The position numbers and the translations under genes were made by a program. This document shows positions 36,294 through 41,416 of a stretch of 64,000 nt of DNA, in pieces. The notes below the pieces were generated by a model, which saw nothing but the letters and a program-made list of their open reading frames with translations, ran no database searches and was not told where the DNA came from. Position 1 is the stretch's first letter. Each line of letters begins with the position of its first letter. Source of the DNA: Gammaproteobacteria bacterium. Lineage in GTDB: Bacteria; Pseudomonadota; Gammaproteobacteria; QZLD01. The stretch covers positions 23,879 through 87,878 of the forward strand of contig JAWSVC010000013.1 in NCBI GenBank assembly GCA_033852075.1, written 5' to 3'.

Positions 36294-37154
36294 TCAGTTA
36301 TACTCCAACCCCTCTTCGGCATTTTTAATTGCGCGATCTTTTCTTGCGACATTGTTATGTTCCTTATTACGGGCTTTTTCAAACGGTTTATATTTTATTA
36401 TGATATTTCTGGGGTCAATGTTTATAGAATCTTTATAAGAAGATAGTCCAATCGCCCCCCATCCCGAATCCTTTTTAAAACTCCAACTTAACTTCTTCCA
36501 ACCTGTTTTTGCCGAAATATTCATATTAAAACCTCTACATTCCACCCCATACTCTTTAGCAATTGCACTTAAATCGCTTTGTAAAGCAGCCTTTCCATAA
36601 AACACTCCCCCTTGAACTGTAATATTTCCATCACTGTCAAGCTCTACCTTCATGAATTCAGCATCTACTTTAGCGCTATAAACTCCATCTGAAAAATTTG
36701 CACTTATTCTGTCACTTATATCAACACTAATCCCCTCTCTCCCATCAGGATCAACAAATCCATACGGATTATTATTGGCATAGGCATAGCGATTAAAGCT
36801 ATTCATATTATCTTCTTTAAACCTCAACGGGTCTGTGGCCATAAAGCGTCCCAATACTGGGTTGTAGTAGCGCTGCTGCATGTAGGTGAGATTGGACTCG
36901 GCATCTTCGACATGACCGGTATAGGATTTAGCGGTATCGGATTGGTCACCTCCGCTGTATACCCTTTCACCATAAGGGGCGTACATATTGAATTTTAAGA
37001 TATCCTCTTCACCTGCCTCATCGGTCATCTTTATCGGGCTACCCTGATAATCGTTGTGCAGGAAGGTGATAGTAGTTTTGGTTTTGGCGTAACCGTTTCC
37101 AGCCACCAGCAGTGCTGTTACCAGCACCAGTTTACTTATTTGTTTCATGTTCAT
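36294..37154 (-). CDS. Stand-alone RHS repeat-associated core with its own signal peptide and a ~146-aa C-terminal domain of unknown function
   Basis: The start was moved to the ATG at 37154 (AAGGAT upstream). The signal peptide is MNMKQISKLVLVTALLVAGNGYA. The mature protein begins at the RHS core (FLHNDYQGSPIKMTDEAGE ... YAPYGE ... YTGHVEDAESNLTYMQQRYYNPVLGRFMATDP ... NRYAYANNNPYGFVDPDGRE). Confidence 0.8.
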   Translation of the reverse strand: MNMKQISKLVLVTALLVAGNGYAKTKTTITFLHNDYQGSPIKMTDEAGEEDILKFNMYAPYGERVYSGGDQSDTAKSYTGHVEDAESNLTYMQQRYYNPVLGRFMATDPLRFKEDNMNSFNRYAYANNNPYGFVDPDGREGISVDISDRISANFSDGVYSAKVDAEFMKVELDSDGNITVQGGVFYGKAALQSDLSAIAKEYGVECRGFNMNISAKTGWKKLSWSFKKDSGWGAIGLSSYKDSINIDPRNIIIKYKPFEKARNKEHNNVARKDRAIKNAEEGLEYN

Positions 37155-37182
37155 TTTCGTATCCTTTTCGTATTCAGTGGGT

Positions 37183-40200: not shown

Positions 40201-41416
40201 CAGGATTACTGATAGTTGTGGTATCTTCATCACTATTCTGGCTGTATGAGTACTCCCAAAGATAGGTTTTGCCGCCAACTTTTAGCTTTTTCTGTTTCAA
40301 AGCATGGGTATATGTAGAAGATGGCTGATCCATCTGCTGTTTGGTATATGTATAGGAACTTATTGCCCCATGCGGATAGGTGACTTTACAAAGACTCAGA
40401 TACCCGGAACTGGCCGAACCACCAACACCCCAAACTCCTGGATCATAAGGCCCTTTACAATAATTACTATATGTTACTGAGTTATCCCTGGTTGCACCTT
40501 CCCAGTATCCAAAGTATTTGTATTTCCAGGTTTTCTCCCCGGCAACATTTACCGTACTCAAAAACCGTTGATTTTGGCTCAGTGGAACTTTTTTATATGA
40601 ATAAGTTACTTTACGGCCACTATTACCCACCTGAGAAATAGATTTAATCACTGGATTTTCCGCATCAGTATCGTCATATTTGATCCCGATGCTTTTTCCA
40701 TCACTAGAGGTAACTTTAGTCAATAATGTCTCATGCCAATAATCGGTATAGGTCATTCTCAGGTAATTGCCGCTAAGATCGGTAATTTTGGTGACATACC
40801 ATATCTGCCGGGTTGATACACCCAATGCATCATTAGCCTTAGCGTGTTTTTTGAACTCATATTTTGTTCCACCGGGTGCGGTCAATGTAATGCTTTGATC
40901 ACTACCAACAGCAGTACAATTTGACACGTCACCACGCCAGCGATCCGCGGTAATATAGAGACTACTTGTTTCGGCCCCCATGATCTTATCGTTTAGATAG
41001 AGCTTTTTCACCGAGCCATCAGCCATCTCAAAAAACGGAAATCTGGCTGACGATGTTTGATGAGTCTTTGCAATACACAGATTTCCGTCTGGCTGGATAA
41101 TACGGCCAAAATGAACCGACCAGCCAACTCCGGCCCAGGTTTCATTAGAGCCATCCGGAATTTCACCACGCGGATTGTTGTAATTTCTATGAACCACAAT
41201 ATCCAGTTCCCCGTTTGTAGGGACAACCAGATCAACATTGTGAAACTTGACCCCTCCGGAAAACGGTTCAATTGTTTCCCCGCCCTGACCGTTCTGATAG
41301 GCCCGGTTTGGATTAAATCCGGGCTCTTCATAATATCCCGGCATTTCCATTGCAACCGCCTGATTAAGGGCAACTACCCCCAATGCGGCTACAATCGTTT
41401 TTTTCACTATGCTCAT
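37220..41416 (-). CDS. Secreted YD-repeat (RHS/teneurin-type shell) protein ending in an FN3-like domain
   Basis: The start was moved to the ATG at 41416, preceded by GGAGAGAAAT. The signal peptide is MSIVKKTIVAALGVVALNQAVA. The shell starts with LDIVVHRNYNN ... WAGVGWSVHFGRI and carries many YD repeats (YRYDANGN, YGYDKNGN, YDYDENGR, FDYDNYGN). The C-terminus SWDSVPDAISYEIDIS ... DGTYYVRIRSCS is FN3-like. Confidence 0.85.
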   Translation of the reverse strand: MSIVKKTIVAALGVVALNQAVAMEMPGYYEEPGFNPNRAYQNGQGGETIEPFSGGVKFHNVDLVVPTNGELDIVVHRNYNNPRGEIPDGSNETWAGVGWSVHFGRIIQPDGNLCIAKTHQTSSARFPFFEMADGSVKKLYLNDKIMGAETSSLYITADRWRGDVSNCTAVGSDQSITLTAPGGTKYEFKKHAKANDALGVSTRQIWYVTKITDLSGNYLRMTYTDYWHETLLTKVTSSDGKSIGIKYDDTDAENPVIKSISQVGNSGRKVTYSYKKVPLSQNQRFLSTVNVAGEKTWKYKYFGYWEGATRDNSVTYSNYCKGPYDPGVWGVGGSASSGYLSLCKVTYPHGAISSYTYTKQQMDQPSSTYTHALKQKKLKVGGKTYLWEYSYSQNSDEDTTTISNPDSSKTIYKHYGSQYGSAWRTGLTKSVTYTKGGGTLGFGVSREASSLATKSANGTWYIGIGGSSTTDNSSKKISYTWDKQKISSASNLRNTTYENLVEDSDTYVPIQTKVITIQDGTQYKTTYSDYDDYGNAREVKEWGNDGAYRMTRYGFNSSYKKSKWLINHATLEEVSNSTGGSYVGSGPQIYNKVTRKYNSIGKVSEETVNGITQSYRYHTSSHGELYIHKDAKGNETKFSNYSGGIPRKEVRPVDANHSIEITRVVNSDGTIRSESVKELDGTVITTSFGYDNLDRITSITKPQGSRVSIGYSKNSETLTRGDFKQVKTLDGMGQVVKTTYTDKGNPSSQIWNKVAYDSKGRVRYKYNPNSDSKRIAYKYDVLDRVVKTTDQAGNATSIEYLSNNQEKITDPEGVVTKNHYRSYGNPAEKNLIKVENFDDNGDLLINRTVINRDLVGRIKNVKQGISGVGRGVMTRTYRYNNKYQLESINDPEVGITDFRYDANGNLTQQRVNSSSSSQWITYNYDAQNRQTGIVYPAATGSVDSAENIEFDYNNRGLVTAMKTDSVQRNYGYDKNGNLDWENLVVDGNTYTLDYGFNNLDMLEQIEYPAQGDIGTLIYNPDAFGRPAEVRTGDGHMVFAEAVTWHPSGSVHQLHYGNGHVETTALDSRLWVQSINTPGLLSLEYGHHKNGNISSITGMPDTDYSSMTYDGMGRLKSMTPTEGMLTIYRTNRMLTDEPQKTFTNDIEFDYDAQGNITRKKIATRLVEYDYDENGRLNAATNEVVFGKEEYSFDYDNYGNIISDGKDYYRYNHAGAMVSLNNGEVNYLYDGNRMRVKKEKSGSPDAYFFYSSGGDLIGEYRADGTSKEYVMLAGKAIAEVNVEEEIPEYNLVLPENAINGEIDTDGSFSLSWDSVPDAISYEIDISTDYDFSENVQSIYSGSDTSAQIQDLDDGTYYVRIRSCSANSCDEWVVSPAPITVQHKYIPIMVGDMTIIIPKVD

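Follow-up and report, generated by a model that had tools for sequence, protein, structure and literature searches.

Cocoons of the RHS type have so far been understood either as single chains delivered via the type VI or the type VII secretion system (T6SS and T7SS, respectively), or as cytoplasmic TcB/TcC pairs. Here we considered a locus, in a stretch of 64,000 nt from a Gammaproteobacteria bacterium (contig JAWSVC010000013.1; the whole stretch is hereafter called the window), in which two adjacent genes encode, respectively, an RHS shell with its own signal peptide and an RHS core followed by a presumed toxin, again with its own signal peptide. According to our analysis, to which we give a probability of about two in three, the locus encodes a Sec-exported, two-chain RHS toxin of the same type as Bcn-A of the plant pathogen Xanthomonas perforans, most likely secreted as an antibacterial bacteriocin.

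The Rhs effectors of the T6SS (Rhs1, 7PQ5; RhsA, 7Q97; Tse5; Tse15) have in common with the window pair the YD barrel, the plug/protease with its DPxG motif and the hypervariable toxin, but in their case all of these are on a single polypeptide that has no signal peptide and that goes with PAAR or prePAAR, VgrG and Eag chaperones. In Rhs1 of P. laumondii the barrel is formed by residues 420-1262 and the C-terminal plug, an aspartyl protease lying deep inside the barrel, by residues 1263-1357, with a cleavage between L1342 and A1343 that depends on the catalytic D1338 (PMC8636562). As for the BC component of Tc toxins (TcdB2-TccC3, YenB-YenC), it is, like the window pair, a YD cocoon made of two polypeptides, the second of which carries the core/aspartyl protease and a hypervariable toxin, and different C subunits, encoded at other sites, can be loaded by one and the same Tc B subunit (PMC11067744, cited in part). 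However, TcC gives a large part of the barrel, whereas the second chain of the window would give only the last hairpin and the plug; moreover, the Tc subunits have no signal peptides, are assembled in the cytoplasm and need TcA for delivery, whereas both chains of the window have signal peptides. Tc toxins are released by lysis (PMC10847048, cited in part). WapA and the Sec-dependent single-chain RHS toxins share with the window system the N-terminal signal peptide as export determinant, but WapA is a single, wall-associated chain of Gram-positive bacteria, whereas the window system consists of two chains. Signal-peptide RHS toxins were classed under "T2SS" (type II secretion system) by Zhang et al. 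2012 (PMC3482391), a paper in which we found no mention of a separate plug/toxin chain or of a split.

The last term of comparison is represented by the orphan rhs-CT/rhsI cassettes, which resemble cassettes of the window type in that they are short genes starting in the core-coding region, bring alternative toxins with immunity genes and are often arrayed. Classical rhs orphans have no start codon and no export signal of their own and need recombination into the main gene. The cassettes of the window type are unlike them, since each is provided with its own start codon and signal peptide, and no core is present in the main gene itself. The locus has the features of the RHS superfamily (YD repeats, and a core immediately before the toxin), with the core on a second polypeptide, and it departs from the canonical one-polypeptide Rhs in that a stop codon, a hairpin, a ribosome-binding site and a new signal peptide divide the shell from the core. 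It is neither a classical orphan cassette, nor a Tc toxin, nor a T6SS Rhs; new within RHS is a predicted two-chain, Sec-exported system in which plug and toxin are supplied in trans.

For Bcn-A, the part of the original report used here (Marutani-Hert et al. 2020, PMC7259588) describes a locus of five open reading frames (ORFs), i.e. ORFA (a 1,398-aa RHS protein), ORF2 (124 aa), ORF3 (100 aa), ORF4 (290 aa) and ORF5 (145 aa), and assigns to ORF4 a signal peptide and two transmembrane (TM) helices at 148-170 and 176-198. Killing needs ORFA, ORF2 and ORF4, with a contribution of ORF3, and ORF5, the downstream gene, is sufficient alone to confer immunity. The activity is found in the supernatant and not in the cell fraction, is retained by 50-100 kDa filters and is gone in an xpsD (T2SS) mutant. 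In the authors' view, again according to that part of the report, ORFA is the toxin and ORF4 is an accessory protein.

The pair of genes in the window was read from two minus-strand ORFs that are adjacent, lie in different frames and together span 36294-41476; precisely, the upstream one covers 37220..41476 and the downstream one 36294..37211 (the features within them are collected in Table 1). The shell likely starts at the ATG in position 41416, hence giving a protein of 1398 aa that begins with the signal peptide MSIVKKTIVAALGVVALNQAVA, followed by MEMPG after the predicted cleavage site. This signal peptide has a K-rich n-region, an 11-residue hydrophobic core and A-V-A before the predicted site, and signal-like N-termini were found also on the shell homologues. 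The 1398-aa protein matches the Pfam family RHS_repeat (PF05593, E 1.6e-15) and TIGR01643 (E 1e-10), and no match of an RHS core domain was found in it with either Pfam or TIGR profiles. A preliminary description of this locus had claimed a YD protein of ~1400 aa, provided with a signal peptide and core-less, and this is borne out by the above; it had also claimed that the shell ends in an FN3 domain, and of this second claim the additional residues and the stop codon stand, while the identity of the domain is plausible only. In fact, the barrel ends with ...EYVMLAGKAIAEV and is followed by 120 residues more, whose match to Pfam fn3 is weak (E 0.0048, 17.5 bits against a cut-off of 25), and the equivalent appendages of relatives match the FN3-like ChitinaseA_N at 6e-9; for these reasons we kept the label "FN3-like" as a plausible, sub-threshold one. 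The protein finishes with ...YIPIMVGDMTIIIPKVD, and a hydrophobic tail (KYIPIMVGDMTIIIPKVD) is encoded at about 37223-37276. In other shells the appendage is Big_3_5 or TSP3-like, or there is none.

The next gene had been described as encoding a fresh signal peptide, the residues KTKTT, the RHS core and a 146-aa tail, with a start 65 nt past the shell stop to be preferred to the start of the ORF (9 nt past it), and our results agree with each of these points. The downstream ORF matches TIGR03696 (Rhs_assc_core) with E 5.2e-21, and the order along the protein is MNMKQISKLVLVTALLVAGNGYA, predicted to be cleaved before KTKTT, then the core, from ITFLHNDYQGSP to FNRYAYANNNPYGFVDPDGRE with DPDGRE at its end, and then the tail of 146 aa. 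Residues 3-19 were modelled by AlphaFold2 (AF2) as a helix with a predicted local distance difference test score (pLDDT) of about 88. Regarding the start, the first ATG of the ORF (37211) lies inside a perfect hairpin and an AGGA precedes the ATG in position 37154, hence the latter was considered as the better start. The 96 nt around the hairpin fold at -28.9 kcal/mol (z -3.5), and none of 200 shuffled sequences was equally stable. A possible role of this hairpin is to adjust how strongly the shell and core genes are expressed relative to each other, or to stabilise the mRNA. Scans for promoters and terminators gave about as many sites as expected by chance (34 against 38.5, and 12 against 7.8).

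What the core protein would supply to the shell was read from its alignments to solved structures. Positions 29-151 of its profile align to residues 1235-1355 of Rhs1 (7pq5_L), and the profile aligns also to the equivalent region of TccC3, P. protegens RhsA, Tse5, Tse15 and teneurins. R95, D108 and D135 are invariant in an alignment of 70 family members and are the residues which, partly from the Tc literature, we take to be the catalytic Arg, Asp and Asp conserved in the plug; in two family alignments conservation ends at DPDGRE. On the side of the shell, the stretch 1145-1200 corresponds in the alignment to 1645-1702 of 8qja, a structure with its core starting at 1770, so that the last strand of the shell (residue 1278) would meet the start of the core to ~10 residues. 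By these alignments the core protein is predicted to supply the payload together with the last hairpin of the barrel and the whole of the plug/protease. Since its conserved part maps to the hairpin and the plug of solved Rhs proteins, the shell alone would be without plug; by homology, then, the 1398-aa protein forms a barrel that is open at one end, and not an already closed shell unable to accept a core, the finding that the preliminary description had regarded as fatal to its proposal.

The split is genuine and widely conserved, and it is not an artefact. The possibility of an assembly error around the junction, raised when the locus was first described, was addressed with the Logan assembly of run SRR26541473, which is identical to the window in 4760 of 4760 nt across the junction (window positions 35452-40211). 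A search with the core protein returned 860 relatives, and we examined the best 120 of them, which nearly all are 160-460 aa long and have the same plan as the core protein of the window. In 18 aligned relatives a variable hydrophobic N-terminus is followed by a core running from T-x-T-Y-x-H-N-D to D-P-D-G-R-E and then by unrelated tails; precomputed Pfam accessions assign the tails of several relatives to HNH, restriction-endonuclease-like, ParB, colicin D, M23 and PT-HINT, and PT-TG and TM-helix tails occur as well at the toxin position.

We also scanned one genome per species, obtaining 578 relatives, and analysed the best 79 loci, for a total of 85 loci including the window. Short core genes were found in 65 of these loci (83 genes), and in 77 of the 83 the N-terminus includes a strongly hydrophobic stretch, with a few residues between its end and the core. 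A YD-rich ORF lies at most 2.5 kb upstream, on the same strand, in 41 of the 52 loci that could be assessed, while a genuinely fused shell-core gene was found in only 5 of the 85. Conservation of the split among orthologous loci, which the preliminary description had left to be checked, is hence confirmed, and so is its central claim of an RHS toxin divided into a signal-peptide shell and a separate signal-peptide-core-payload protein. The two-gene layout is present in Pseudomonas, Shewanella, Nitrosomonas, Xanthomonas, Lysobacter, Reinekea and many metagenome-assembled genomes (MAGs). In Pseudomonas, a 1202-aa signal-peptide YD protein ends with ...EYFYLGDQRIAQQVSP before the stop codon and is followed, 23 nt on, by a 316-aa signal-peptide-core-toxin gene and then by a 101-aa gene; in Shewanella fidelis, the shell has 1414 aa and another kind of extra domain at its C-terminus, and its gene shares 11 nt with the core gene; in Nitrosomonas ureae, the shell (1456 aa, with Big_3_5 at the C-terminus) stops 10 nt before the core gene.

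In three loci (L010, L035 and L022) extra domains, from 170 to about 820 aa in length, are placed N-terminally on the core protein, after the signal peptide; L010, for example, is composed of a shell gene and then of a protein with a signal peptide, about 820 aa and the core. From the variants L010 and L022 the break point appears to be fixed after the last barrel strand, with the appendage on either side of it. We also considered the hydrophobic tail of the shell as the strand preceding the core, and this was unsupported, because L022 and L060, in which the appendage is fused to the core, have no such segment. Arrays of two to four tandem signal-peptide-core-toxin cassettes were found in 13 loci (among them L014, L062, L080, L024 and L064). 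In L064 and L024 the repeated unit also takes in an FN3-like fragment, corresponding to the 3' end of the shell gene, which suggests that cassettes are gained by recombination, as for classical rhs orphans.

To compare the window with Bcn-A, the protein corresponding to ORF4 was recovered by a chimeric query composed of a Lysobacter core and the published helices; a 51-residue query with only these two helices, linked by X residues, gave no match. The protein P0124 holds both published helices verbatim and, with the addition of 19 upstream codons, is 290 aa long with the helices at 148 and 176; we identified it as ORF4 on the basis of the helix sequences, of the length and of the helix positions. 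Its residues from about 30 to 138 are an RHS core (...YIHTDGLGS...FNRYWYADNNPYRFYDLDGRE), with DLDGRE at 133-138, and the P0124 loci reproduce the order TamB-ORFA(1398 aa)-ORF2-ORF3-ORF4-ORF5. ORFA ends with ...EYVLLGGSNVAEV, an FN3-like domain and IIPLLYQLLLN before the stop, i.e. with the same layout as the window shell. The window shell and a 1398-aa ORFA-type protein are collinear (residues 46-1362 and 51-1367, respectively; 23% identity, E 2e-45), and the window core protein is 38% identical to the Xanthomonas ORF4-type protein P0131 over signal peptide and core (E 2e-30). Judged from these sequences, ORF4 carries a signal peptide, a core and a toxin, the RHS toxin Bcn-A is split, and the window locus is a distant member of the Bcn-A type.

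The two loci share the ~1400-aa core-less signal-peptide RHS protein, with its last strand, FN3-like domain and hydrophobic tail, the separate ~290-aa protein made of signal peptide, RHS core and variable tail, and, beside them, secreted proteins with two Cys. They differ in that ORF2 and ORF3 stand between the shell and core genes in Xanthomonas, whereas in the window the pair is adjacent and seven paralogues flank it; moreover, the Xanthomonas tail has two TM helices and is unrelated to the tail of the window, where the DUF4279-type immunity gene is absent (no homologue of ORF5/DUF4279 was found in the 64 kb). The identification of ORF4 as RHS core plus payload is not given in the part of PMC7259588 used here, and none of the papers returned by our literature searches describes an Rhs that is split and exported via Sec. 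The preliminary description had presented this mode as one not described before; as far as the sources used in part allow, it was right that the split-cocoon nature is unrecognised in the literature, but a member of the class, Bcn-A, had already been studied genetically.

With regard to the mechanism, we propose that both chains would cross the inner membrane unfolded via Sec and that signal peptidase would then free the first strand of the core, which lies five residues past the predicted cleavage site. Once in the periplasm, the core would complete and plug the barrel, with the tail trapped inside, and the protease would cut between R and E of DPDGRE, leaving the toxin loose in the lumen of the cage. 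The closed particle would exit through the T2SS, and the binding to the target might be due to the FN3-like appendage, to the small two-Cys proteins, or to both. A consequence of the split is that the payload, being provided with a start codon and an export signal of its own, becomes a cassette that is complete in itself and can be exchanged, which fits the arrays found behind single shell genes. We suggest that the direct expression and exchange of payloads may be the reason why the split persists, by analogy with one TcB loaded with several TcCs (PMC11067744, in part).

Some observations weigh against this reading. The AF2 model of the core protein, built on an alignment of 70 sequences, has a pLDDT of 54.5 and is confident only in the signal-peptide helix, with low values across the tail (as a query for fold searches, this model was dropped because of its score). 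The window core reads RYYNP (residue 98) where most relatives read RYYDP; the same position is S or E in other family members, and the R/D/D positions are intact in the window core. The tail has no significant match among the Pfam and NCBIfam families, hence no recognised toxin family, and no clear immunity gene comes directly after it. Indeed, on the 3' side of the toxin gene there is a gap of 377 nt, in which a 52-aa ORF has no significant Pfam/NCBIfam match either, and then an ORF2-like gene (35498..35854), which by its position might be the nearest immunity candidate. In 11 of the 52 assessable loci, no shell gene was found within 2.5 kb upstream of the core gene. The route of export across the outer membrane rests on the Xanthomonas homologue, with its 23% identity in the shell, because no T2SS genes are present in the window. 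Lastly, the need for ORF2 in Bcn-A could be a polar effect, since the deletions were apparently not complemented, according to the part of PMC7259588 considered.

These points have to be considered together with other explanations of the same locus. One is that the two chains do assemble and that the tail is not encapsulated, being either outside the shell, as in teneurins, or part of a complex which stays on the surface of the producer and acts by contact. Teneurins offer a precedent, with their C-terminal domains outside the shell (PMC8636562), and threading a payload in trans into a near-complete barrel is mechanistically demanding; furthermore, TM helices are present in some tails of the family and the appendages of the shells (FN3, Big, TSP3-like) look like adhesion modules. 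We consider it unlikely, because the protease residues that free encapsulated toxins are invariant, the tails have the size of encapsulated Rhs toxins (about 15-17 kDa) and the activity of Bcn-A is in the cell-free supernatant and not in the cell fraction (PMC7259588, in part).

We judged it quite improbable that the core protein is an autonomous secreted toxin, in which the core is only a self-cleaving pro-domain, while the YD protein is an independent adhesin or toxin and their adjacency reflects the history of the cassettes, as for orphan rhs-CT modules. Against it, the shells of this class consistently lack the plug that is present in every solved Rhs, Tc and teneurin shell, the core proteins start exactly where the shells stop and the core alone was predicted poorly by AF2; moreover, Bcn-A needs ORFA and ORF4 each, and the fraction holding its activity has a size of at least 50-100 kDa, which is larger than the 32 kDa of ORF4 (PMC7259588, in part). 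The loci without a nearby shell gene, the tandem arrays and the presence of an export signal on each cassette are nonetheless what an autonomous toxin would give. Finally, that a single-chain rhs gene was broken here by a sequencing error, a frameshift or a nonsense mutation, as the different frames of the two adjacent ORFs and the broken subtilase gene of the same island (see below) might indicate, is practically negligible as an explanation, because the junction holds a 120-aa extra domain, a stop, a hairpin, a ribosome-binding site and a complete signal peptide, so that there is no simple break, the layout recurs in dozens of genera with the signal-like N-termini counted above, the independent assembly is identical and the Xanthomonas homologue is functional.

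Besides the two genes of the Bcn-A-type toxin, other genes belong to the system, beyond the shell/core pair to which the preliminary description had been limited. Seven minus-strand genes flanking the pair (Table 1) encode each a signal peptide and about 90 residues, with two conserved Cys, and are related to ORF2 and ORF3 of Bcn-A and to the 106-aa gene upstream of ORFA, with cross-species BLAST matches to 1e-4. No other ORF in the 64 kb matches the hidden Markov model (HMM) of this small family. The family recurs, often in multiple copies, in Nitrosomonas, Reinekea, Shewanella, P. carbonaria and two MAG loci, hence in a subset of the loci; it counts 319 cluster representatives among 1.84 billion proteins, nearly all of 100-130 aa, and it has no significant Pfam or NCBIfam match. 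Its profile also matches each of two very long proteins, P0273 (2130 aa) and P0381 (1908 aa), at five to six distinct places, and these could be either tandem arrays of B-subunit-like domains or low-complexity noise.

Table 1. Coordinates (window positions) and supporting evidence of the features of the two-gene RHS locus and of the flanking small-protein genes
Feature	Position	Strand	Evidence or remark
Shell gene (BcnA/ORFA-like)	37220..41416	-	signal peptide, N-terminal region, YD/RHS barrel, no RHS core
Predicted Sec (signal peptidase I) signal peptide of shell, MSIVKKTIVAALGVVALNQAVA, cleavage before ME	41351..41416	-	read from sequence
Shell C-terminal appendage: FN3-like beta-sandwich and short hydrophobic tail	37223..37582	-	fn3 sub-threshold
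Signal-peptide, RHS core and toxin gene (Bcn-A ORF4-like), 286 aa	36294..37154	-	TIGR03696, ORF4-type match
Predicted Sec signal peptide of core protein, MNMKQISKLVLVTALLVAGNGYA, cleavage before KTKTT	37086..37154	-	sequence; AF2 helix
RHS-associated core: last barrel hairpin and C-terminal plug/aspartyl protease, ends DPDGR/E	36738..37085	-	TIGR03696
Hypervariable C-terminal tail, presumed toxin, about 146 aa	36297..36737	-	conservation stops at DPDGRE
Intergenic 13-bp perfect RNA hairpin	37182..37210	-	no T-run after; covers ATG 37211
Small two-Cys protein (ORF2/ORF3-like), first gene downstream of toxin gene	35498..35854	-	HMM E 3.5e-19; family alignment
Small two-Cys protein (ORF2/ORF3-like), directly upstream of shell gene	41538..41891	-	HMM E 1.7e-19; BLAST to Xanthomonas ORF3 1.3e-4
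Small two-Cys protein (ORF2/ORF3-like)	42254..42574	-	HMM E 1.6e-13; resembles 106-aa gene upstream of Xanthomonas ORFA
Small secreted protein, same family, divergent	42856..43230	-	HMM E 2e-16
Small two-Cys protein (ORF2/ORF3-like)	43268..43606	-	HMM E 1.4e-17
Small two-Cys protein (ORF2/ORF3-like)	45086..45445	-	HMM E 5.7e-11
Small two-Cys protein (ORF2/ORF3-like), modelled member	45532..45894	-	HMM E 1.7e-25; AF2 pLDDT 66.5

One member of the small family was modelled by AF2 from the alignment of the seven paralogues, giving, at modest confidence, the topology beta-beta-beta-alpha-beta-beta, a predicted OB-like fold. The best Foldseek matches of this model in the PDB were B subunits of AB5 toxins, i.e. 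LT-IIb B, CfxB, pertussis S2/S3 and ArtB (E from 8e-4 to 3e-2, TM-score 0.5-0.6), and when the family profile was run against 177,635 PDB sequences only ArtB (E 0.37) and Stx1B (E 0.79) were returned, neither of them significant. Each of these lines is weak and the lines agree, hence we tentatively consider the small proteins as resembling B subunits of AB5 toxins (cholera toxin/LT, Shiga toxin, pertussis toxin, ArtAB), with which they have in common a mature length of about 90-100 residues and the export via Sec; the Cys pair is, however, placed differently, and the similarity is weak. AB5 toxins assemble in the periplasm and leave the cell via the T2SS, which parallels the dependence of Bcn-A on the same system. 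Shells with a short hydrophobic tail were found in 7 of the 8 loci carrying the small family, and the link between tail and family, whose p value was 0.07 with the cut-off set in advance and 0.001 with one picked afterwards, is to be taken as a lead only.

We also considered, as a doubtful extension of the two-chain reading, that Bcn-A-type systems are hybrids of RHS and AB5 toxins. In this case, the small proteins would form periplasmic oligomers gripping the hydrophobic C-terminal tail of the shell, like B pentamers on A2, and would give to the cocoon both the recognition by the T2SS and the specificity for a receptor; the seven paralogues would be alternative or hetero-oligomeric receptor binders, and the cassettes alternative warheads for one cage.

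The RHS and small-protein genes form an island of ~11 kb (35400-46300), wholly of minus-strand orientation, which is bordered by a ychJ-like SEC-C gene (34823-35320) on one side and by an acetyl-CoA hydrolase gene (46445-47779) on the other; the G+C content is 41-42% in the RHS genes and about 36% in the flanks. In the island there is also a broken subtilase gene (43887-44931, minus strand), of which the ORF 43887-44543 represents the C-terminal half of Peptidase_S8 with PKD; the ORF 44488-44931, overlapping this remnant, has a signal peptide at its start and no family match, and the gene is probably a pseudogene. The absence of PAAR, VgrG, T6SS, TcA and two-partner-secretion genes near the pair, already pointed out in the preliminary description, extends to the whole 64 kb, in which we found no T6SS, PAAR, VgrG, Eag, Tc (SpvB, beta-propeller, TcA), two-partner or T2SS genes. 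The remainder of the window is ordinary chromosome (metE, pepN, deaD, lnt-corC-ybeY-phoH-miaB, carAB, RND/ABC transporters), with a RhuM/Fic-domain gene (32076-33038, minus strand) between miaB and phoH, in what is otherwise, by the flanking genes, a miaB-phoH-ybeY-corC-lnt cluster. Further away, a gene for a 969-aa protein with PKD and LamG (Laminin_G_3) domains (15134-18043, minus strand) is adjoined by a regulator gene (14088-15068, plus strand) that has the unusual combination of HTH_3, a LuxR-type autoinducer-binding domain and GerE.

The locus comes from a large unanalysed class, with hundreds to thousands of genes in Gamma- and Betaproteobacteria. If the proposed mechanism is true, a toxin-filled cage assembles outside the cytoplasm, and one has then to ask how a payload still unfolded would be captured there. 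It would also provide a mechanistic account of Bcn-A, a bacteriocin of agronomic interest for which the published model would name the wrong component as the toxin. In addition, the toxin cassettes would be directly expressible and swappable, with no need for recombination into a 4-kb gene, and foreign cargo could be loaded into secreted protein cages by means of a simple system of two plasmids.

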